A stretch of DNA of 36,646 nucleotides from Candidatus Dojkabacteria bacterium. GTDB lineage: Bacteria; Patescibacteriota; Dojkabacteria; J137. Positions within the stretch are counted from its first letter, which is position 1; each line of letters opens with the position of its first letter. The stretch spans positions 1-36,646 of the forward strand of contig JAGQLF010000001.1 of assembly GCA_020429545.1 (NCBI GenBank), written 5' to 3'. Below the pieces are notes generated by a model. It saw only the letters and a list, made by a program, of their open reading frames with translations. It did not search any database and had not been told where the DNA came from. Made by a program: the position numbers and the translations under genes. This document shows, one piece after another, positions 3,719 to 36,192 of this stretch.

Positions 3719-3830
3719 GACCTCATTATACATTAAGAAATTACAAACAAGATGATTTAGCATTAAAATCGTTGTAGGTGCTTAGAATTATCTTTAAATT
3801 GGAAATTCGAAAAAAGAAATCCGAAATAAA

Positions 3831-3972
3831 TAGGAAATCTTGCTTTATCAGCAGTATAGGCTTGTCAGTTCGAGTGAAATTTGCGATAGCAAATTTTGTA
3901 TCTAGAACTCACTTCTCGATACAATTCTACTTCTCCCGATAAATCGGGATCAGTAGAATCACTCGAAGTAAC
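3831..3972. repeat. structured intergenic repeat, family 1 (cloverleaf-like four-way junction), copy A
   Basis: P1 TTCGAGTG (3869-3876) / CACTCGAA (3960-3967) encloses hairpins 3877-3896, 3898-3922 and 3924-3959. A TAGGAAAT box lies 37 nt upstream. Confidence 0.75.
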
Positions 3973-4000
3973 ACAGCTAGGGACAGGAATTTATAATTTT

Positions 4001-4035
4001 GCTAGAAGCCCGTAGCTAGCAGCTAGTGGCTATTT
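4001..4035. repeat. 5 x 7-nt phased array (GCTAGAA GCCCGTA GCTAGCA GCTAGTG GCTATTT)
   Basis: GCTA or GCCC at 4001, 4008, 4015, 4022 and 4029. It contains the ruvC TAG stop (4023-4025) and shares the 13-mer GTAGCTAGCAGCT with array 756-790. Confidence 0.85.
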
Positions 4036-7310: not shown

Positions 7311-10300
7311 GTGAAAATTACAAATATTAGAAGAAGTAGACAACTACTGCTTTTTGTTTTTGTTGCACTTTTTGGGATTTTACTTATTATTCCCTTTGAA
7401 AAAGTAAATATAATCAATGCAGCAACATTAACTTGGGATGGTGGTGGTGGAGACAACAATTGGAGTACATGTGCAAACTGGACAACAGATACATGCCCAG
7501 GTACATTAGATACTGTTATATTTGATGGTACAAGCACAAAAGATGCTGCAATTGATGCAAGTTTTACTGGGATAGTAAGATATCTTACTATAAGTTCTGG
7601 CTACACTGGTACCATTACTGCTAATAGATCGATTACAGTAGTATTAAATTTTGGACAAGCAGATGGCATTTTTGATTTGACAGATCAAAGTGGAACTTTT
7701 ACAACTACAAATATAACCGGAGGCTTGTTCACCGCATCATCTACAGATACTACTTTCAAAGGTCCACTTACCATTGATAATTCTAGTTATTTTGATGCAA
7801 ATGGAGGTAATGTAATTCTAGCTCCGGCCAGTAATGTAACCTATACTTATACCTGTAATAATACCGTTTTCAATCAGGTAACAATTTCACCTGTTGCTGC
7901 AAATGCTACGCTAAATATGACTGATAGTTGTAATTTTCCTTTAGGTAGTAACCCAACAATTAGTTCATCTTCAACAATCAAAGTTTATGGAGACTTAAGT
8001 GGTACTGGTGAGTTGGGATGGCCAGCTGCTAATTTACAAATCTATTCAACTGGTACATTAACTGGATTTAGTGGCTATAACACTGGTGCTTTGAGGCTTA
8101 CTGGAAAGACACTAGATTGGTCAGGGGCAACTACCTTTGCTATGACTGGTAATCTAACTATTGAATCTAGTGGTGGTCTGACACTTCCCTTGCCTACCGG
8201 TACAATACAAATATACGATTTAACTGTATCAACTTCTAGTACTTTTACAGCTTCTTCTGGGACTATGAATGTAAGAGGCGATATCACCCTATCAAATGGT
8301 ACGACATTCGATTCAAATGGAGGAACCATTAATTTAAATCCAACAGGGAATGTATCTTACGATTGCTATAGTCATACATTTGATTTAATTACTATTAATC
8401 CTGTAAATAATAATATTGATCTTAATATAAACTCTACATGTAACTTTCCTCTTGGTGATAATCCAACAATAACTGGAACCAATGTCGATTTAAATTTAGA
8501 TGGGACACTTTCTGGTACAGGTACATTAACAGCCAGTGCCGATAATCTATTTGTAGTTTCCGGCAGTATACTGTCTGGGTTTGATGGCTTAGAAGTTAGC
8601 AGACTTTATATTAATGGAGCAAATCTAGACCTAAGTAGTTATTCAACCTTAATAACCAACAGTAATTTTGAATTGATTTCAGGAAGTTTTGTTGCACCAT
8701 CTGGAGAAATGGAGGTAAAAGCAAATTTCTACCATACTGCAGGAACTTTTACACATAATAGTGGAACTATTAATTTTTCTGGAACTGGGATTCAAACAAT
8801 AACTGGCTCAACGACTTTTAATAATTTTACAAAAGTAATGACTGCAGATGTATCAAGTAGTTTAAGATTTACAAGTAATACAACTCAAACTATCGAGGGA
8901 GATATGACATTGCATGGATACAGCGATAGTCAAAGATTGAATTTGATTGCAAGCAGCAATACTGTTCAGTGGAATATTGATCCACAAGGAACAAGAGATT
9001 TACAGTATCTAAGTGTTAAAGATTCAAATAATATAAATGCAAGTGTAATAGTACTTAGTGGTACTGGAAGCAACGATGCAGGAAATAATACTAATTACGA
9101 TTTTGCGAATAGTGCCCCAGATGCTCCTAATACCCTAGGACCTTCAGGATATGTGAATGGAAGTTCAGATACCGATACAACTCCCACATTGACATTTAAA
9201 ATATCAGATGTAGCAAATCCTTTAGATACTCTACGATTTAGAATTCAGATTTCAGATACCAATGACTTTTCTAATGTTTTAGTAGATTACACATCTGCCC
9301 TAGCAGCTGCTGGAAGTAAAACTTTTACTGTTGGGCAAGCAGTAGGTAGCGGAACATATAATGTGGGGTCAATTGGACAAACTTTAGATAGTGATAGCTA
9401 TTATTGGAGAGTTAAGACCATAGATAACAGTGCTGCGGAATCTGCTTATTCAACTGCAAATTCAGGGTCAATTGCGTTTATAGTAGCTGGGTATCCTAAC
9501 TTACCTTATGCTTTTGGACCTGCGAATAAAATCGATGGGTCAGACTCAACCGAAGGACAACCTAACCTTTATTTTACCTTAGATGATCCTAATGCAGGGG
9601 ATACTGTTAAATACCAAATACAAATTTCCTTAGCAAGTGATTTTTCTACACAAGTTGTAGATTACACATCTGATTTAAGAGCACAGGGTGTTTCTAATTT
9701 TACTGTTGGTCAAGCAGCTGGTAGTGGAAGCTATACAACTGGAAGTTCTGGACAATCACTAGGGAGTGGAAGCTACTACTGGAGAGTTAAAGCAATTGAC
9801 ATTAATAATGAAGAATCTGTATTTAAAGCTGCTTCATTTGGGGGAATTGCTTTTGTAGTATCAAATCCTCCAGATGCACCAACCAACCTAGGACCTAATT
9901 TGTTAATTACTGGGGGCTTATCTACAGATGATACACCTACATTCTCATTTGACTTATCCGATTCAGATGTAGGAGATACAGTAAAGTACAGAATTGATAT
10001 TTCCACAAATAGTGACTACTCTGCTCTAGCCGCCAGTTTTACTTCGGCACTTAGTGCTCAAGGTTCCGCTAGTTTTACTGTAGGACAGTCTTTAAACGGT
10101 GGATCATATTTTCATGGATCTGTTGGAATGGATCTAAATGATGGTGACTATTATTGGAGGGTTAAAGCAATAGATAGCAATGGTGTTGAAGGTACTTACA
10201 CACTAGCTAACGCTGGTGGAATTGCCTTTTCAGTTGGAGGTAATCCGCCAGATACACCTTCCTCTCCAGGTCCAGTAAATCTAATAAATGGTTCTGTAAT

Positions 10301-16668: not shown

Positions 16669-16699
16669 AATTAAAAATTGCTTCTCCCTTTGGGAGAAG
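16669..16699 (-). terminator. candidate intrinsic terminator for the vapBC transcript
   Basis: 8-bp GC-rich stem CTTCTCCC-ttt-GGGAGAAG (16681-16699). On the minus strand it is followed by CAATTTTTAATT. There is no U-run on the plus-strand side. Confidence 0.45.
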
Positions 16700-16778
16700 G
16701 CGATGAGGGGAGAATTTCTTGTCTTTTGTTAATAATAAAATCCTATAGAAATGGATTTTCTTCGGGAGTATTCATTTC

Positions 16779-17204
16779 TTAACTTACTACTTCAATATCT
16801 AGTTTATCAGCATTTTTAATAAAATCTGAATCGAATGTTGCAATATTTTTGATTTTAGCAAGTTTCATATAATACAGGTGGGCAGAGTCTGTTGGCTTTA
16901 AGGTAGTTTTAGAATATATATCTATAAATTGCTCAACATTGTGCACTATAAAATTCTCATCAATTACCTCTAAGTTTTCCAACTTAATAAATTTTTCAAC
17001 TAACTGACACGCAGTTGATTTATCAATTCCATACTTTGAAAGAATATAAAGAACTTCGTCTAAAACAAATAGCGAAACATATAACTTGTCACTTTTTATT
17101 TTTTTGTAGATGCTTATTGCTTCAGAGTTGTCAGCATGCCCATCTATAAGAAATGCAATCACAAAACATGCATCAAGATAGACATGGAGTTTATCTGTCT
17201 TCAT
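16779..17204 (-). CDS. vapC: PIN-domain toxin VapC
   Basis: 141 aa. N-terminal VYLDACFVIAF holds the first PIN acidic residue, with further acidic residues (LDEVLY, FDSDF) at expected spacing. 14-nt overlap with the upstream antitoxin gene. Confidence 0.8.
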   Translation of the reverse strand: MKTDKLHVYLDACFVIAFLIDGHADNSEAISIYKKIKSDKLYVSLFVLDEVLYILSKYGIDKSTACQLVEKFIKLENLEVIDENFIVHNVEQFIDIYSKTTLKPTDSAHLYYMKLAKIKNIATFDSDFIKNADKLDIEVVS

Positions 17205-17442
17205 ATCTTTTATCTAATAATTCTTGGATTTCTTCGTTAGTTACTTGTCTACCTAATTTAATAATTCCAGCTAAATTCATAATATCATTAATTTTTTTCT
17301 TTCTTTTTTTTTGAACCTTAACCTCTCCCTCTTCCATAACCACTTCTAGCTGGTCGCCTTTTTGAAAACCAGCTTCCTTTATAATTTTTGTTGGCAATGT
17401 AATCATCATTGAATTACCTACTTTTTGTAGTTTAACTGTCAT
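17191..17442 (-). CDS. vapB: AbrB/MazE (SpoVT-AbrB) family antitoxin VapB
   Basis: 83 aa. MTVKLQKVGNSMMITLPTKIIKEAGFQKGDQLEV is a classic swapped-hairpin AbrB-like DNA-binding domain. Confidence 0.8.
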   Translation of the reverse strand: MTVKLQKVGNSMMITLPTKIIKEAGFQKGDQLEVVMEEGEVKVQKKRKKKINDIMNLAGIIKLGRQVTNEEIQELLDKRYEDR

Positions 17443-17464
17443 TTTATTGGGGAATAATTAGAGT

Positions 17465-19044: not shown

Positions 19045-19050
19045 AATTTA

Positions 19051-19085
19051 AGCTGTTAGCTTTTAGTCATTAGCACTTAGCTATT
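19051..19085. repeat. 5 x 7-nt phased array (AGCTGTT AGCTTTT AGTCATT AGCACTT AGCTATT)
   Basis: AG at 19051, 19058, 19065, 19072 and 19079. In mRNA (minus) sense it reads NNNNGCU x5 and ends 6 nt before the rpsR ATG. Confidence 0.85.
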
Positions 19086-19167
19086 TTGATTTGACTAAAA
19101 GCATTTTTCTAAAATATATTTTATTAAATTTATAATCTCTCTATTTGTTATCTTTTTTGATAAAAAA

Positions 19168-19202
19168 GCTAACTGCTAAAAGCTAGTTGCTAATAGCTAA
19201 AA
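19168..19202. repeat. 5 x 7-nt phased array (GCTAACT GCTAAAA GCTAGTT GCTAATA GCTAAAA)
   Basis: GCTA at 19168, 19175, 19182, 19189 and 19196. In mRNA sense it reads UUUUAGC UAUUAGC AACUAGC UUUUAGC AGUUAGC. The first UAG is the ssb stop codon. Confidence 0.9.
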
Positions 19203-19700
19203 AAGGTCTTTTGCATCAAACTCATCATCTGAATCCTCTTCCGTTTGTGCAGGCTCATCTGAACCTTCTAAATTTTCTTCTGGAAGATTATCTTCTCCAG
19301 TTTTTTCCATTAGGTCATCTCCTGCAACTTTTGCAGCATCAACACCCACTGGTGATCTGTCTTTAGAATTTAGAAGAAGCATATCGTTCAATTTAATTTC
19401 TGTTTTATAGTATCTTTCTCCATCATCTTTTGTTTTTGCTCTTGTTCTTAACTCTCCCTCTACATAAACAAGCATTCCTGTTGAAAGTACTTGTGCGCAG
19501 ATTTCGGCAAGTTTGTTAAAAGCAACGATGTTATGGAATTCTGCTCTTTCTTGAACATTTCCATCACCATCTTTCCAACTTGTATTTGTAGCAACACCGA
19601 ATGTGCAAACTACTACTCCATTTGATGATTCTCTTAGGATTGGATCTCTTGTCAGGTTTCCAATTAAGATTACTTTGTTTAAAGATCTTGATTTTGCCAT
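19197..19700 (-). CDS. ssb: single-stranded DNA-binding protein
   Basis: OB-fold N-terminus NKVILIGNLTRDP. Acidic C-terminal tail ending DDEFDAKDLF. Confidence 0.9.
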   Translation of the reverse strand: MAKSRSLNKVILIGNLTRDPILRESSNGVVVCTFGVATNTSWKDGDGNVQERAEFHNIVAFNKLAEICAQVLSTGMLVYVEGELRTRAKTKDDGERYYKTEIKLNDMLLLNSKDRSPVGVDAAKVAGDDLMEKTGEDNLPEENLEGSDEPAQTEEDSDDEFDAKDLF

Positions 19701-20009: not shown

Positions 20010-20075
20010 TTCTCACCACAAATAATAAATAAATTTCCTTCGAAGATTATAATCGATTATGCTGAATTTGTAAAT

Positions 20076-20220
20076 TAGGAAATGGAACTGGCTATATTAC
20101 ATATGGTATGTAAGTTCGAGTGGCATAAATTTGACGAAGTCATAATTTATGATGTATCGAGAACTATACTATACATACTTCTCGATACAATCCTGATAAA
20201 TCAGGATCGCTCGAAGTGAC
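20076..20220. repeat. structured intergenic repeat, family 1 (cloverleaf-like four-way junction), copy B
   Basis: P1 TTCGAGTG/CGCTCGAA encloses three hairpins (20124-20151, 20154-20188, 20190-20207). It shares the upstream TAGGAAAT box at the same spacing as copy A. Confidence 0.75.
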
Positions 20221-20225
20221 GAGTA

Positions 20226-20837
20226 TTATTCAACACCATCCCTTCGCCTTAGAGAGTCTGATAAGGTTTGAGAAGACATATACTCAATACTACTTCCAGT
20301 TGGAATTCCTTTTGCTAATCTTGTAGTCTTTATATCTAAGTCCAAGTCTTTTATCTCGTTTGTTATGTATAAACTGGTCGAATCACCCTCCAGATTAGGA
20401 TTTAGACCAAAAATAATCTCTTTTATATCAGAATCAGATTTTAAACGACTCAAAAGCTCTCTTATTCTTATTTCGTCAGGTCCAATACCATTTACTGGTG
20501 ATATTATTCCATGCAATACGTGATATACACCTTTATACTCTCCTGTTTCCTCAATACTATAAAGTTCTAATGGAGTTTCTACAACTAGAATGATTGATTT
20601 ATCTCTTTGTCCATCATCACAAATTTCACATAAGCTTTCATTATCAGTTACATTAAAGCAGTTATCACAAAGTCTAATCTTTGCAGTTACATCTTTTAAA
20701 GAGTCCTCAAGTCTTGAAGCAAGTTTTCGATTTGATATAGAAAGATATAAAGCTATCCTATTAGATAGCTTTGGTCCCACTCCTGGTAGGGAGGAAAACC
20801 TTTCGCTTAAATCTCTAATGCTTCGGGGAAGAGCCAT
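20226..20837 (-). CDS. recR: recombination protein RecR
   Basis: HhH motif LPGVGPKLSNRIA. C4 zinc finger CDNC..CEIC. Toprim domain. Confidence 0.95.
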   Translation of the reverse strand: MALPRSIRDLSERFSSLPGVGPKLSNRIALYLSISNRKLASRLEDSLKDVTAKIRLCDNCFNVTDNESLCEICDDGQRDKSIILVVETPLELYSIEETGEYKGVYHVLHGIISPVNGIGPDEIRIRELLSRLKSDSDIKEIIFGLNPNLEGDSTSLYITNEIKDLDLDIKTTRLAKGIPTGSSIEYMSSQTLSDSLRRRDGVE

Positions 20838-20941
20838 AAAATAAATTCAAAAGTAAAAATTCAAAAATCAAAATTATTAATTAAGTTAGTATATTTTTAG
20901 ACCTATAGTTAACTTCATCAAAGTCTATAGTCTGTTCACAA

Positions 20942-20976
20942 CTAAAAACTAACACCTAAAACCTAGAAACTATTAA
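20942..20976. repeat. 5 x 7-nt phased array (CTAAAAA CTAACAC CTAAAAC CTAGAAA CTATTAA)
   Basis: CTA at 20942, 20949, 20956, 20963 and 20970. In mRNA sense the ybaB stop TAA is followed in-frame by TAG, then four more TAGs at 7-nt steps. Confidence 0.9.
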
Positions 20977-21287
20977 AGTCCTAACATCTCCTTAATATCA
21001 TCTAAATTTGCAGAGTTCATCATTTCTTTTTCTAATTGTTCCTTTGCATCCGACATTGCATTTTTGAACTGATCTTTTAGTTTTTTAAGAATTTTTTCAA
21101 ATTCATCTCTAGAGATTGTATCTGAATCTGTAAGTCCTTCTTCATCAATCTCAATTTCCACTATTTCGTTTAATCCGTTCATTAAAATACTTACCGACCC
21201 ACTTGTTCCTGCAACTTGTATTTTGCTCATTTGTTTCTTAGCTTGTTGAGCTTTATACATTGCCTTTGGTACGTTCATTATTCCCAT
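20973..21287 (-). CDS. ybaB: YbaB/EbfC-family nucleoid-associated protein
   Basis: 104 aa. The MSKIQVAGTSGSVSILMNGLNEIVEIEIDEE core is typical. Sits between dnaX and recR. Confidence 0.85.
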   Translation of the reverse strand: MGIMNVPKAMYKAQQAKKQMSKIQVAGTSGSVSILMNGLNEIVEIEIDEEGLTDSDTISRDEFEKILKKLKDQFKNAMSDAKEQLEKEMMNSANLDDIKEMLGL

Positions 21288-21416
21288 ATTTTTATTTTAT
21301 AAAAGTTATTATTTTGCTAAGTGTAATTATACACTATTTTAAAACCTCTCTGCCCTCCATACATCTTACCTTTGACAAAGGAGAGAAAATTTCGATTTAT
21401 CAAAATTAGAGGGGTG

Positions 21417-22901
21417 CTATAGAATGCTCTCTACTAATTCAGAATTATCAAATGATTCATCTTTAGGTTTTTCTTTAGTTTCTGTCTTAACCTCTTTTGG
21501 CTGCTCTTCCTCTTTTACTTCAACTTTTTTTATTGTGACTTTCGGTGCTGTAGATTTTTTTTGAACTTTCTTTTTATCAGAAGCAATTTCTAGTCCTTTA
21601 ATTTCACTATTCAATCGAGCAGCTGTATCTATAATCTTTTCTACATTGACTTTCTGATTTAGGTATTTAATATTAAAGTTATATTTATTTCCTAAAATTA
21701 ATTTTCCGGAATCTATTGATTCAAATTCACAAGTCTTAACAATAGCCCCTAATCTTTTATCGTCTTTTTCTATTAAATTTCCAAGAGCTTCTATAAAATC
21801 TTCACTACTACTGTTTTGTGAATCTGAATTCTGAATACTATTAGCAGGCTGTAAGTCTTCCTCAATATCTTTGACTTTTGACTTTTGACTTTTGACTTGA
21901 ATTTCTGGTTTATTAGTTTGATTAAAAGAAGCTTCTGCTTGAACATTATTAGATATATTGTTTAACTTAGCTAAGATATATACCTTTTTATTATTATAGA
22001 ACTTCTGATTTTCAATAATATTTAATAAAAGTGGAATTACACTCTCAAATTTTGAGTTGTTTACAATATATTCTAGTGCTTCTTCCAAAAAGAAATCTAA
22101 ATGAGTATCATCTATCTGCATTAGTACTTTTGATAGTTCATCATGGTCATTATTTTCTAAAGAAGATAAAAAGTTTATTATTCCTTCTTCTGGTAACAAA
22201 CCAAAAACTTTATCAATAGTCTCTTCAGTTATTTCATCTGATTCCGATTGGATTACTTTAGCGAGCATACTCTCTGAATCTCTAAAGCTCCCTCCAGACA
22301 ATTTATAAAGTTTGTCAATTGCGCCATCGCTAATTTTTATTTTCTCTTCTTTTGCAATATTCTTTATTTTCTCTTTTAGTTCATTTGATTCAGCAAGTTT
22401 AAAATCTAACCTTGTTACTCTAGATAAAATTGTAACTGGAATTTTATGAGGTTCAGTTGTTGCCAGTATAAACACAACGTGTTTTGGAGGCTCTTCTAGA
22501 GTTTTTAAGAGGGCATTAAAGGCCTCTTTTGTAAGCATATGAGCTTCATCTATAATATAAACTTTATAACCTAATTCAGCCGGTAAATAGTTCACATTAT
22601 CTCTTAGCTCTCTAATCTCATCTATCCCTCTATTTGAAGCAGCATCCATTTCAATAATATCAATGCTATCTTCTCTATATTCACTCAAGTCTCCTTTTTC
22701 TTTAAACATTTTGTCGTTGATGGCATTTGCGAATAATCTAGCAGTTGTAGTTTTACCAGTACCTCTTGGGCCAGAAAATAGATATCCATGTGAAAAGTTA
22801 TCATTATTTATGGAATGAATAAGAATATCCTTTATAGTCTGCTGTCCCTTGAGCTCAGAAAATTTTCTAGGTCTATATTTTCGATAAAGTACTGTGGACA
22901 T
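21417..22901 (-). CDS. dnaX: DNA polymerase III subunit gamma/tau
   Basis: Walker A GPRGTGKTT. Walker B IIDEAHML. Sensor SRVTRLDF. Low-complexity K/E-rich C-terminus. Confidence 0.9.
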   Translation of the reverse strand: MSTVLYRKYRPRKFSELKGQQTIKDILIHSINNDNFSHGYLFSGPRGTGKTTTARLFANAINDKMFKEKGDLSEYREDSIDIIEMDAASNRGIDEIRELRDNVNYLPAELGYKVYIIDEAHMLTKEAFNALLKTLEEPPKHVVFILATTEPHKIPVTILSRVTRLDFKLAESNELKEKIKNIAKEEKIKISDGAIDKLYKLSGGSFRDSESMLAKVIQSESDEITEETIDKVFGLLPEEGIINFLSSLENNDHDELSKVLMQIDDTHLDFFLEEALEYIVNNSKFESVIPLLLNIIENQKFYNNKKVYILAKLNNISNNVQAEASFNQTNKPEIQVKSQKSKVKDIEEDLQPANSIQNSDSQNSSSEDFIEALGNLIEKDDKRLGAIVKTCEFESIDSGKLILGNKYNFNIKYLNQKVNVEKIIDTAARLNSEIKGLEIASDKKKVQKKSTAPKVTIKKVEVKEEEQPKEVKTETKEKPKDESFDNSELVESIL

Positions 22902-23266: not shown

Positions 23267-23385
23267 CTCCCCTCGAGGGGAGTGGTATGAATTGAGCTTA
23301 GCGATAATTCATACCAAGGGGTGTTACTGTAACACCTTCCGGCCAACCCTAACAAGTTAGGATTGGCCACCCTCCTCAAGGAGGG
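23267..23385. repeat. structured intergenic repeat, family 2 (five consecutive GC-rich hairpins), copy C
   Basis: h1 23267-23282, h2 23284-23315, h3 23320-23336, h4 23341-23368, h5 23370-23385. Lies between the rseP stop and rpsU. Confidence 0.8.
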
Positions 23386-26054: not shown

Positions 26055-26176
26055 CCTTCTCCTTTTAGGAGAAGGTGGCATAAAGTTAAGCGTAGCGTAT
26101 ACTTTATGCCGGATGAGGTCTTGACCTCACCTTTCTTTTGCCTTCGGCAAAATTTATCCTCTCCTACAAGGAGAGG
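26055..26176. repeat. structured intergenic repeat, family 2 (five GC-rich hairpins), copy D
   Basis: h1 26055-26075, h2 26077-26110, h3 26114-26129, h4 26136-26152, h5 26158-26176. Lies between the rpsB stop and tsf. Confidence 0.8.
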
Positions 26177-26189
26177 AAAATGTCTATGT

Positions 26190-34846: not shown

Positions 34847-34855
34847 TTTAAAATG

Positions 34856-34897
34856 AGTAAATAGTAATTAGTGTTGAGTATTGAGTAATTAGTTACT
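34856..34897. repeat. 6 x 7-nt phased array (AGTAAAT AGTAATT AGTGTTG AGTATTG AGTAATT AGTTACT)
   Basis: AGT at 34856, 34863, 34870, 34877, 34884 and 34891. Starts 10 nt from the MreB-like start codon. Confidence 0.85.
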
Positions 34898-34908
34898 ATA
34901 GTCTTGAA

Positions 34909-34943
34909 CACTAAATGCTCAGTACTAATTACTGGCTACTTTT
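34909..34943. repeat. 5 x 7-nt phased array (CACTAAA TGCTCAG TACTAAT TACTGGC TACTTTT), complementary type
   Basis: RCT at 34910, 34917, 34924, 34931 and 34938. ACTAATTACT (34924-34933) is the exact complement of AGTAATTAGT (34884-34893). Confidence 0.85.
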
Positions 34944-34990
34944 ACAAATTATATATGAAGATGTCTATATGAGGTAGTAATTTAAAAATA

Positions 34991-35063
34991 AGCTGAAACT
35001 GGGAATTGAACCCAGGACCTCACCCTTACCATGGGTGCGCTCTACCATCTGAGCTATTCCAGC
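34991..35063 (-). tRNA. tRNA-Thr (anticodon GGU)
   Basis: Minus strand: GCTGGAA TA GCTC AGATGGTA GAGC G CACCC ATGGTAA GGGTG AGGTC CTGGG TTCAATT CCCAG TTTCAGC + discriminator T. Cloverleaf with one G:U in the acceptor. CCA is not encoded. Confidence 0.9.
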
Positions 35064-35195
35064 ACTTACTTAAATTAACTTGTCAATTTAGTCTCGCCGA
35101 AGCTTAAGCGAAGGCGGACTATTCCAGCATTTATTACGAGTTAAAATTGTCAACTTAGTCTCGCCGTAGCTTCAGCGAAGGCGGGCTATTCCAGC
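35064..35195 (-). repeat. two tandem 66-nt units, each starting (minus sense) with the tRNA-Thr 5' decamer GCTGGAATAG followed by a GC-rich hairpin
   Basis: Units are 35064-35129 and 35130-35195. The hairpin is TAGTC-T-CGCC / GGCG-GACTA with loop GAAGCTTAAGCGAA or GTAGCTTCAGCGAA. They lie directly upstream of tRNA-Thr(GGU). Confidence 0.85.
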
Positions 35196-35254
35196 TTTTA
35201 TGAATCTGGAAGATTATACAATATTAGATCTTTTGAATGTGAGAATAAAAAATA

Positions 35255-35337
35255 TCCGGAGAGAAGGATTTGAACCTCCGTAGTCCTGGGACGCCTGATT
35301 TACAGTCAGGTGCGATTGACCGCTCCGCCATCTCCGG
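35255..35337 (-). tRNA. tRNA-Tyr (anticodon GUA), class II, with C1:G72
   Basis: Minus strand: CCGGAGA TG GCG GAGCGGTCAAT CGC A CCTGA CTGTAAA TCAGG CGTCCCAGGACTAC GGAGG TTCAAAT CCTTC TCTCCGG A. U8 and U33 are in register. 83 nt. CCA is not encoded. Confidence 0.85.
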
Positions 35338-35342
35338 AAACA

Positions 35343-35420
35343 AGTACCAAGTACTGAGTTTTTAGTACTTAGTTATTTTATTAATTTCTAAGTACTCAGT
35401 ACTAATTACTAAAAACTGAA
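35343..35420. repeat. inverted pair of 5 x 7-nt arrays forming a long hairpin between tRNA-Thr(UGU) and tRNA-Tyr
   Basis: Left arm: AGT at 35343/50/57/64/71. Right arm: (A/T)CT at 35387/94/401/408/415. AGTACTTAG (35364-35372) pairs with CTAAGTACT (35388-35396). AGTACTG (35350-35356) pairs with CAGTACT (35397-35403). Confidence 0.85.
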
Positions 35421-35424
35421 CTGG

Positions 35425-35497
35425 AGCTGGAACTGGGACTCGAACCCAGGACCGACTGTTTACAAAACAGTTGCTCTACCAACTGAGCTATTCCAGC
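35425..35497 (-). tRNA. tRNA-Thr (anticodon UGU)
   Basis: Minus strand: GCTGGAA TA GCTC AGTTGGTA GAGC A ACTGT TTTGTAA ACAGT CGGTC CTGGG TTCGAGT CCCAG TTCCAGC + T. Perfect acceptor stem. Confidence 0.92.
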
Positions 35498-35562
35498 AAT
35501 CTAATTGTTAAATCTACGTTTTTCCTTTCTGTTTATCACTTAAAAAACCAACTGCTCAATAA

Positions 35563-35604
35563 GGTCATCATTTTATAAACGTAGTGCAATAAAATGATTT
35601 GACC
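35563..35604. other. long AT-rich hairpin (9 bp + 2-nt bulge + 5 bp)
   Basis: GGTCATCATTTTAT-aaacgtagtgca-ATAAAATGATTTGACC. Located between the tRNA-Thr fragment and tRNA-Thr(UGU). Confidence 0.6.
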
Positions 35605-35607
35605 GCA

Positions 35608-35706
35608 TTAGTCCCGACAATGTCGGGGAGCTATTCCAGCACTTACTTAAATTAACTTGTCAATTTAGTCTCGCCGTAGCTTCAGCGAAGGCGGACTATT
35701 CCAGCA
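35608..35706 (-). repeat. 13-nt tRNA-Thr 5' fragment fused to a hairpin, plus a third 66-nt GCTGGAATAG-hairpin unit
   Basis: 35628-35676 is identical over 49 nt to 35051-35099, i.e. the first 13 nt of tRNA-Thr(GGU) plus its upstream flank. About 80 nt aligns with 2 mismatches. The tRNA body is replaced by TCCCCGAC-att-GTCGGGA. Confidence 0.85.
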
Positions 35707-35717
35707 TAACTGTATCG

Positions 35718-35788
35718 AGTAATGAATTTTTAGTACTTAGTTATTTTGTTAACTTCTAAGTACTCAGTACTAACTACTCTGTACTAAT
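35718..35788. repeat. second copy of the AGTACT-word hairpin (4 + 5 heptamer units)
   Basis: 35727-35778 is near-identical to 35359-35410 (TTTTTAGTACTTAGTTATTTTrTTAAyTTCTAAGTACTCAGTACTAAyTACT). The right arm has (A/T)CT at 35755/62/69/76/83. Confidence 0.85.
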
Positions 35789-35803
35789 TTAAAGTGCTCA
35801 TCA

Positions 35804-35833
35804 AGTATAGCAAAAGGTTATAAAACTTTGCAA
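35804..35833 (-). promoter_or_regulatory. candidate promoter of the minus-strand tRNA cluster (TTGCAA-N18-TGcTATACT)
   Basis: Minus strand: -35 at 35828-35833, -10 at 35804-35809, TG at 35811-35812. Confidence 0.45.
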
Positions 35834-35856
35834 AATATTTAATTTTGATATAAAAT
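35828..35856 (+). promoter_or_regulatory. candidate rpmB promoter (TTGCAA-N17-TAAAAT, overlapping TGATATAAA)
   Basis: The -35 hexamer is palindromic (TTGCAA) and shared with the divergent tRNA promoter. -10 at 35851-35856. ATG at 35886. Confidence 0.45.
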
Positions 35857-35885
35857 CTACACGTTATTTAAACAATTTCAAAGAA

Positions 35886-36125
35886 ATGGCACGAGTTTGC
35901 GAAATATCAGGAAGAAAAACAAGAACAGGAAATAGAATTCAGCACAGAAGAGGTAAGTCTGGATCTGGAGGAGCGTGGAATTATAAGGCACCTAAGACAA
36001 AAAGAACTTGGAAACCTAATCTAAGAAAGGTTAAAGTTAACATTAACGGCACTACAAAAAGAATCAAAGTTAGCATGAAAGAGTACAAAAAAATGCGAAA
36101 AGAATCTGAAGCTCTAGCTAACTAA
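35886..36125 (+). CDS. rpmB: 50S ribosomal protein L28
   Basis: MARVCEISGRKTRTGNRIQHRRGKSGSGG...KPNLRKVKV matches the L28 core. 79 aa. Confidence 0.9.
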   Translation: MARVCEISGRKTRTGNRIQHRRGKSGSGGAWNYKAPKTKRTWKPNLRKVKVNINGTTKRIKVSMKEYKKMRKESEALAN

Positions 36126-36143
36126 TTGACTCTACTTTCATAA

Positions 36144-36192
36144 GACTATAAACTCAGTACTAAATACTCAATATTCATTATTAACTACTCTT
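36144..36192. repeat. 7 x 7-nt phased array (GACTATA AACTCAG TACTAAA TACTCAA TATTCAT TATTAAC TACTCTT)
   Basis: AYT cores at 36145, 36152, ... 36187 (five ACT, two ATT). The array ends 1 nt before ATG 36194. Confidence 0.7.

Follow-up and report, generated by a model that had tools for sequence, protein, structure and literature searches.

The window analysed here is a stretch of 36,646 nucleotides (nt) from contig JAGQLF010000001.1 of a Candidatus Dojkabacteria bacterium, in which a tandem array of five 7-nt units lies directly behind the stop codon of the gene ybaB. According to the list of open reading frames (ORFs), ybaB/ebfC occupies positions 20973-21287 of the minus strand, encodes 104 amino acids (101 from an alternative ATG) and ends with TAA at 20975-20973; its homologues carry PF02575 and are named YbaB/EbfC family. 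Upstream of it lies dnaX (21417-22901), and the cistron downstream of the array is recR (20226-20837, minus strand), which encodes 203 amino acids and has homologues with RecR Pfam domains. The ybaB-recR spacer is 135 nt long. Around the ybaB stop the minus strand reads ...GGA CTT TAA, then the array itself, TAGTTTC TAGGTTT TAGGTGT TAGTTTT TAGTTGT (20938-20972), and then GAAC..., and the units can be written TAGKTKY in the window or, in the more general form used below, (N)AG-N4. An earlier sequence-only reading of the window had reported an in-frame TAA-TAG followed by four more TAGs at 7-nt steps, which together close every reading frame. Both statements are borne out by the sequence, with TAGs that start at 20972, 20965, 20958, 20951 and 20944 and fall in frames 0, 1, 2, 0 and 1.

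The array is real and non-random. In 300 dinucleotide-preserving shuffles of the window, runs of at least five TAG-N4 units averaged 0.0, versus two in the real sequence, and runs of four averaged 0.007, versus one. Among periods 4-12, TAG runs in the window appear at period 7 alone, and Tandem Repeats Finder (TRF) describes the ybaB array as a period-7 repeat of 4.7 copies with 80% matches. With at least four head-to-tail 7-nt units in non-coding DNA, the array resembles heptanucleotide simple-sequence repeats in this respect. It had also been called the cleanest UAG-N4 array of the window, a distinction that it shares with a sister array on the same strand, in which five TAGC-N3 units, no less clean, begin with the TAG stop of ssb (19199-19169).

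By protein similarity, the nearest relatives of the window are uncultured Patescibacteria: its RecR and YbaB are 90% and 86% identical, respectively, to proteins of the metagenome-assembled genome (MAG) GCA_020429495.1, titled ‘Candidatus Dojkabacteria’, and its RecR is 74% identical to that of a MAG titled ‘Candidatus Saccharibacteria’. An exact look-up of the YbaB sequence of the window retrieved no contig, and two metagenome scans returned nothing close, the first no match and the second one distant match of 44%. Syntenic ybaB-recR loci, which we designate by locus numbers, were taken from genome and assembly collections. Behind the ybaB stop, L083 reads gCAG TTTC TAG TATT TAG TAAC TAG TTTT TAG TTAT, and L089 reads AAG TTTC TAG TGGC TAG TAAC TAG TCAC TAG AAAT. 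The L002 array, AAG TTTT GAG TTTT TAG TTTA CAG TTTT AAG TTTA, is followed by the ATG of an inserted HAD-like gene, and L001 and L090 share the sequence AAG CTAT TAG CTCT TGG CTGA TAG CTTT TTTT.

What these arrays hold in common is an A-G dinucleotide in a fixed phase. The window, L083, L089 and L002 each have exactly five AGs in a single 7-nt phase (p < 5e-5 for each, compared with shuffles), and AG is the sole dinucleotide that reaches the maximum in all four lineages. Across their 20 units, departures from TAGTTTT number 6, 0, 0, 3, 6, 8 and 9 by position, which leaves A and G intact in 20 of 20 units and places all 32 departures elsewhere (six at the first base and 26 in the spacers). The chance that two adjacent positions would be free of change is p = 1.4e-4, or 1.6e-3 under a conservative parsimony count. 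Between the window and L083, 12 of 12 TAG bases are identical, versus 9 of 16 spacer bases (Fisher p = 0.0097), whereas four-fold degenerate sites are 63% identical. The remainder of the ybaB-recR spacer is 80% identical between these two loci, with one 14-nt indel. In near-identical strains the copy number of the ybaB array is unchanged, and its spacers are heterogeneous.

A crude neighbour-joining tree of six concatenated proteins groups L087 and the array-bearing lineages into a single clade. The simplest history would be that the array arose once, was retained for long with its phase and unit number unchanged, and was lost once. That the ybaB array is old rather than a fresh repeat, keeping its position, five units, phase and A-G while the first base and spacers drift, is largely shown. 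The array shows the pattern of position-specific purifying selection, unlike the class of 7-nt arrays as a whole, to which we return below.

Other elements lie between the array and recR, all on the minus strand. Ten nt past the fifth TAG, and after a phase slip of +3, the sequence contains two extra NAG heptads (CAGACTA TAGACTT, 20921-20934), which form the 5' arm of the next hairpin. This imperfect, A+U-rich hairpin had been noticed from the sequence alone; it is present at 20899-20933 in both the minimum-free-energy and the centroid fold, and has no U tract behind it. The equivalent heptads in L083 are TAGATTA TAGACTT, and the alignment shows that the stem UAGACUU/ARGUCUA is retained there via one G-U change. 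Further on, the 8-mer ACTAACTT (20883-20890) is conserved in the alignment of the window with L083, belongs to the outer stem of the predicted fold and is complementary to the last array units (UUAGU/ACUAA). The phased block previously described ahead of recR is likewise recovered by TRF, as a second period-7 array (TTTTGAT TTTTGAA TTTTTAC TTTTGAA, 20843-20875, 4.7 copies) that ends 5 nt short of the recR ATG. TTTTGAA-type heptads also precede recR in L083, L002 and L001; the array of the window is two units longer than that of L083, and this difference, which is the 14-nt indel mentioned above, is a signature of slippage. In the window and in L083, the ybaB array sits approximately 100 nt upstream of recR with a hairpin between them.

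Given that each unit in the window begins with a stop triplet, it seems appropriate to ask whether the array is a frame-independent stop trap, whose TAGs at every seventh nt would close all three frames after read-through or frameshifting. The in-frame tandem stop TAA TAG and the way in which 7-nt offsets cycle through the three frames would suit such a role. This explanation fails because G never becomes A, the first base is often not T, and just 4 of 154 genes carry such an array. Specifically, TAA is equally a stop and would be favoured by A+T pressure, yet no unit has exchanged its G for A. Of the 20 units, 6 start with a base other than T, and L002 (AAG, GAG, TAG, CAG, AAG) has four non-stops among its five. 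At least three phased TAGs within 60 nt of the stop occur at 4 of 154 genes from seven related loci, of which three are ybaB orthologues and one is ssb. The enrichment of phased TAGs behind stop codons that the sequence-only reading had proposed as its refutation test is thus not a general stop-linked phenomenon. Its companion comparison of genes by stop codon leads to the same place: genes that end in TAA show no preference for offsets of 7n, and the excess at genes that end in TAG stems from a few arrays that include the stop itself (the 154 genes of the window and related loci end in TAA 88 times, in TAG 50 times and in TGA 16 times). Furthermore, A+T-rich spacers close every frame soon anyway. 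We also rejected assignment to the class of tandem or back-up stop codons, in which any stop is accepted and the feature is general across genes, since neither holds here. Overall, a stop trap is very improbable, and we are confident that the sequence is a heptad element under constraint rather than a device linked to stop codons.

Among the closest known counterparts to this pattern are the recognition sites of HutP in the hut terminator RNA of Bacillus subtilis. This protein reads NAG motifs in which A and G are specified and the first base and the 4-nt spacers are sequence-independent, and it binds three motifs per face; these lie in two clusters on either side of a G+C-rich terminator stem, with a linker of 12-17 nt between them (PMC2425495). 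The ybaB array shares with such sites at least three NAG motifs separated by 4-nt spacers (period 7), in which A and G alone are fixed and the rest is free, and the orthologous arrays vary in the same manner. Moreover, the motifs in relatives run into or form a hairpin, which is terminator-like in L001. Unlike the HutP site, whose 3 + 3 motifs are split by a 12-17-nt linker, the array runs through its five units without interruption, and two NAG clusters around a G+C-rich terminator are not found at the ybaB array, where the next two NAGs, 10 nt on, lie in an A+U-rich hairpin. No hutP gene is located upstream of the array and no hut genes such as hutH downstream; the neighbours are ybaB and recR, and the phylum is Patescibacteria. 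HutP itself is known from Bacillota. A tblastn search with Bacillus subtilis HutP (query sequence checked against PDB 1VEA) found no homologue in 246 kb of clade DNA, in which this genome is represented by approximately 36 kb only, and no PF09021 (HutP) domain was found among the ten window proteins scanned against Pfam. The original observation that the array has the spacing of the HutP repeat was therefore sound as regards spacing and the NAG rule, but the resemblance does not extend to architecture or gene context, and no HutP protein was found in the sequence searched. It is extremely improbable that the array is a true antiterminator site of the HutP family to which a HutP homologue binds, and our analysis does not support membership of that family; it is possible that the array works like HutP.

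Two further systems deserve comparison. TRAP is a protein ring that reads repeated (G/U)AG motifs through key contacts to A and G, and its binding remodels an RNA hairpin; its sites have spacers of 2-3 nt (period 5-6) and 9-11 repeats. The TRAP sites of trp leaders (TRAP is mentioned in PMC2425495) are thus like the ybaB array in the reading of AG and unlike it in period and repeat number. No TRAP was found in the Pfam scan of the ten window proteins, and no search was made beyond that scan. The second system consists of the TAACTGA heptamer repeats of marine Beggiatoaceae, Cyanobacteria and Bacteroidetes, for which a Shine-Dalgarno-independent leader role was proposed in Beggiatoaceae (MacGregor 2015, PMC4679880). 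These repeats, too, occur as 2-6 heptamer copies in untranslated spacers of Shine-Dalgarno-poor genomes, often by start codons, including those of ribosomal-protein operons; they contain stop triplets, and their function is not known (PMC4679880). One heptamer dominates there, whereas many cores are present here and NAG alone is conserved in the ybaB array, which also differs in its location at a gene 3' end and in its units (TAGKTKY rather than TAACTGA). As regards start codons, the L002 array abuts the next ATG, the window array is approximately 100 nt upstream, and the TTTTGAA block abuts recR.

The ybaB array is real, as shown above, but it shares its genome with many period-7 arrays that have other cores, which the sequence-only reading missed. 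The window spacers contain many such tandem arrays. An AGCTAG heptad array between convergent genes (755-790, found by TRF) forms one dispersed family with the AGCTAG array at 4006-4032 and with 19166-19192; TTAGC and GCTAA arrays lie at 19046-19203, an ATTTCGN array at 3792-3827, and AGTACT hairpins around the tRNA genes at 34851-36190. Further cores in the heptad arrays of the clade are TTCGAAA, TTTTGAA and AATTNCG, and the cores are often 4-bp palindromes (CTAG, AGCT, GTAC, TCGA, AATT). Trinucleotide runs of at least four number 27 at period 7 in the window and at most five at other periods, except for a coding 12-mer repeat. Similarly, tandem arrays are abundant at period 7, with scarcely any at periods 5, 6, 8 and 9. 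Autocorrelation peaks at lags 7, 14 and 21 are present in the spacers and absent from coding sequence in the window and in L083, L089, L090, L001 and L002. When 74 loci from many phyla were ranked by the excess of spacer self-similarity at lags 7 and 14, the clade of the window and the Patescibacteria locus L013 took most of the top ranks. Because the period-7 signal is concentrated in this manner, the ybaB array is one member of a lineage-restricted class. In L013, whose RecR is 46% identical, many period-7 and period-8 arrays lie right behind stops (9905-9940 and elsewhere, e.g. ATTTACG ATTTAAG ATTTACG), which suggests that the repeat habit reaches beyond the clade of the window. A perfect heptad array, TTTGACT x 4.1 (sense AAGTCAA), is located at 21870-21898 inside the variable lysine/serine-rich linker of dnaX, and suggests that the 7-nt repeat process also works in coding DNA.

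The ssb-rpsR spacer (19046-19203 in the window and 2025-2117 in L083) carries two inverted five-unit heptad arrays. The inverted partner of the array that begins with the ssb stop consists of five GCTAA-N2 units (19046-19081, minus strand) and ends 3 nt short of the rpsR ATG; in L083, the rpsR-proximal array has five GCTAG-N2 units in the same register to the ATG. The cores are TTAGC/GCTAA in the window versus CTAGC/GCTAG in L083, a switch that points to coordinated change in both arms through pairing, arm-to-arm copying or a shared binder. The shared core variant could equally stem from arm-to-arm copying. We dropped hairpin pairing of the two arrays as a candidate, since only their cores agree, not their spacers, and local hairpins are preferred in the predicted fold. 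For the class as a whole, mutation is the best explanation, namely 7-nt slippage together with arm-to-arm copying between palindromic cores, because the cores are unrelated, a two-unit indel separates close relatives, both inverted arms share a core variant, and phased AG and CT are near parity.

Whether RNA structure accompanies the ybaB array depends on the lineage. The orthologous heptads fold into a hairpin of 16 bp in L089 (-20.3 kcal/mol, z = -5.6) and, in L001, into a 13-bp stem with U7 behind it that resembles a terminator (z = -2.9). The stem of L083 is weak (7 bp), and L002 lacks one. Hairpin potential thus differs between lineages, and the NAG phase is constant. The ybaB-recR spacer of the window matched no Rfam covariance model at the gathering threshold or at E<=1. 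A scan of this spacer predicted no promoter and no terminator; an intrinsic terminator at the array was accordingly rejected, there being no predicted G+C-rich stem-loop with a U tract. We also set aside the idea that the TAG and TTTTGAA arrays pair with each other, because the spacer folds no better than shuffles. By inspection, several short motifs (RNase E-like RNWUU, the EbfC site GTnAC, the primase site CTA, DnaA-trios and Shine-Dalgarno-like AGGUG) fit some units or lineages and fail to fit the orthologues.

Our tentative preference is that 7-nt slippage gave rise to the ybaB array and that it was then retained on the ybaB-recR transcript as an element for periodic recognition. It would probably be transcribed with ybaB, since neither a promoter nor a terminator is predicted in the spacer. 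On the transcript, one A-G per 7 nt could be read by an oligomeric or cooperatively binding protein, following the logic of HutP or, at a shorter period, of TRAP. Binding would compete with local RNA pairing in an adjacent or embedded hairpin; in the window, the array resumes 3 nt out of phase within the 5' arm of the hairpin that follows. In this manner, binding may set the amount of transcript or of translation that reaches the downstream cistron. The binding factor would probably not be a HutP homologue. We consider this RNA-platform mechanism a possible but doubtful account of how the element works. A bolder version would extend it to a heptad code, in which a Dojkabacteria-like subclade employs an oligomeric protein, without relationship to HutP, that binds RNA or single strands and reads one A-G per heptad; through competition with heptad hairpins or terminators, it would control cistrons further along (recR, rpsR and others) within operons lacking Shine-Dalgarno sequences. 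We regard this extension as unlikely.

Several observations weigh against a recognition element on RNA. The whole spacer of the window folds no better than its shuffles (z = +1.06), the same is true of the array region (z = +0.79), and base-pair probabilities indicate that the arrays are more paired than their shuffled versions, so that a ‘single-stranded platform’ receives no support from folding. In L087 and in the outgroups L088, L091, L093 and L097, the ybaB-recR gap is -1 to 19 nt and there is no array; the element, missing there together with the whole spacer, must be dispensable. On the sense strand, phased AG and phased CT are nearly equal (6 versus 8), and a strand-symmetric cause, acting at the level of DNA or of mutation, fits this parity better than an RNA cause. 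Moreover, the heptad arrays of these genomes have many unrelated cores (AGTACT, TTCGAAA, TTTTGAA, AATTNCG), for which one NAG reader cannot account as a class. No candidate binding protein was found in a genome sampled for approximately 36 kb, no Csp motif was found in the clade loci, and the HutP search described above was blank. Finally, (TAG-N4)5 is widespread in unrelated viral contigs of IMG/VR, mostly as uniform heptamer repeats among the matches listed, although approximately 100 chance matches are expected by our own estimate for a collection of this size and the scan therefore says little on enrichment. As a separate observation on these viral loci (L098-L217), some of the arrays listed have varied spacers, and the first two units of the L119 array (750-780, TAGCTTT TAGTCAT TAGCTGT ...) are shared with the window array at 19057-19080.

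The main competitor of a retained recognition element is a neutral heptanucleotide repeat relic. According to this explanation, slippage and template switching between palindromic cores (CTAG, AGCT) generate arrays wherever frameshifts are harmless, and the TAG phase is a functionless inheritance from a TAGTTTT-like seed by the stop. Much of the evidence on the class as a whole speaks for it, including the many arrays with unrelated cores in the spacers of the same genome, the two-unit indel between the window and L083, the occurrence of the same core variant in both inverted arms within a species (TTAGC/GCTAA versus CTAGC/GCTAG), the AG/CT strand symmetry, and a patchy presence among relatives that extends to complete loss. 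TAG heptad repeats are also common in viral contigs, among the matches listed. Period-7 tandem repeats are familiar from cyanobacteria, where they are known as short tandemly repeated repetitive (STRR) sequences. Like the heptanucleotide repeats of Mrazek 2007, as that work is cited in PMC4679880, and like STRR sequences, the ybaB array has a period of 7, lies in non-coding DNA of particular lineages and belongs to a class that changes by whole units. Heptanucleotides are, according to the same citation, the commonest class of long simple-sequence repeats in prokaryotes. Such repeats typically have near-identical units that vary between strains, whereas the ybaB array has heterogeneous spacers, five units across species and an invariant dinucleotide. 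It is the constraint on this one array that a neutral relic struggles to accommodate: A and G never vary across the 20 units, against 32 departures at the other five positions, G is retained in a genome of 33% G+C, exactly five units are present in four lineages, and TAG bases are 12/12 identical where four-fold sites reach 63%. The units of the window are heterogeneous, and thus recent homogenizing slippage cannot explain the conserved core; the copy number is also alike in near-identical strains. On balance, we judge a neutral relic to be somewhat unlikely.

Reading of duplex DNA or a role in translation initiation would explain other parts of the pattern. The omega protein of pSM19035 binds 7-bp heptads in direct and inverted orientation, MetJ-type proteins bind 8-bp repeats, and both act as cooperative small dimers. 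A small dimeric protein of this ribbon-helix-helix type might polymerize on 7-bp repeats in either orientation at the arrays described here, reading (C)TAG. The contiguous repeats of omega (7 bp) and MetJ (8 bp) operators resemble the ybaB array, the cores of the class are often 4-bp palindromes, the same core occurs in direct and inverted arrays, and AG/CT strand symmetry would be expected. However, operators of this type conserve most of the 7 bp and lie in promoters, whereas the window array is non-palindromic with a single CTAG, conserves 2-3 of 7 bases, which is little for duplex reading, and has no promoter predicted nearby. No such protein was identified, and the many cores would demand many proteins. 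When an omega-type operator was considered as a specific candidate, the 7-bp geometry was present and the consensus WATCACW and a predicted promoter were absent. A DNA operator is improbable. We assign a slightly lower likelihood still to a role in the translation of the next cistron, for which the array would be a Shine-Dalgarno-independent leader or stand-by site whose U-rich heptads attract S1 or ribosomes or favour re-initiation. The clade essentially does without Shine-Dalgarno sequences, given that GGAG or GAGG at -20 to -4 precedes 0 of 35 window genes and that relatives are similar (L001, L002, L083, L087-L089). The L002 array reaches the ATG of the next gene, sister arrays stop 3-5 nt short of the recR and rpsR starts, and TAACTGA repeats in Beggiatoaceae offer a parallel case (PMC4679880). 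Nevertheless, approximately 100 nt, including a hairpin, separate the array from the downstream recR in the window and L083, conservation falls on A-G rather than on a U tract, and a stable hairpin sequesters the array in L089 and L001.

Numerous other elements were encountered in the surrounding sequence. A near-consensus promoter (TTTACA-17-TATAAT, 20046-20074, minus strand) lies upstream of rpsF, and its boxes, TTTACAAA and TATAAT, are conserved in L083, L089, L001, L002 and L087, which suggests that recR is the last gene of its transcription unit. A structured repeat of approximately 110 nt (GTAAGTTCGAGTG ... CTCGAAGTRAC) is present at 3864-3975 in the ruvC-ruvA spacer and at 20110-20225 in the recR-rpsF spacer. 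The recR-rpsF spacer of L083 has no copy of it (93 nt versus 216 nt), and on this ground the repeat looks like a small mobile insertion resembling a miniature inverted-repeat transposable element (MITE). By the tRNA genes, a module of 67-80 nt that combines TTGTCAA with a G+C-rich hairpin (GTCTCGCCG...CGAAGGCGGAC) occurs in three copies at 35051-35197 and 35628-35707, and a hairpin of inverted AGTACT heptads occurs in two copies that are 90% identical (35344-35410 and 35712-35778), the first with a fold z of -2.6. Short hairpins of the GGAGA/TCTCC type without a T run lie in spacers at 16680-16700, 21365-21385, 23270-23290, 26055-26085 and 26160-26185; these may represent another dispersed element or else terminators of a kind specific to the lineage. 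At 16779-17449 (minus strand) we predict a probable toxin-antitoxin pair, whose antitoxin would be the small upstream ORF at 17191-17442, with an N-terminus that resembles AbrB/MazE-type antitoxins; the 141-amino-acid ORF behind it may be a PIN-domain protein.

For decades, intergenic heptamer repeats have been recorded in cyanobacteria, Beggiatoaceae, Bacteroidetes and other groups, and to our knowledge no function has been shown for them. Heptamer repeats and the NAG-N4 code are each known. What is new is their combination, in conserved and countable form, in a lineage of the candidate phyla radiation and with a selective signature; our searches of the literature turned up no description of heptad arrays in Patescibacteria. 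The ybaB array can be traced across species with fixed phase, fixed copy number, an invariant A-G and free spacers, and this pattern of constraint matches the one known protein-RNA recognition rule of such geometry. If the heptad code were true, it would represent a convergent re-invention of attenuation of the HutP/TRAP type in the candidate phyla radiation, as well as the first function assigned to bacterial intergenic heptamer repeats. If the constraint fails in complete genomes, the element is a simple-sequence repeat. If it holds, the array would offer a way to test heptamer repeats as protein-binding elements, and would add to our understanding of how genome-reduced bacteria that lack Shine-Dalgarno sequences tune expression within their operons.

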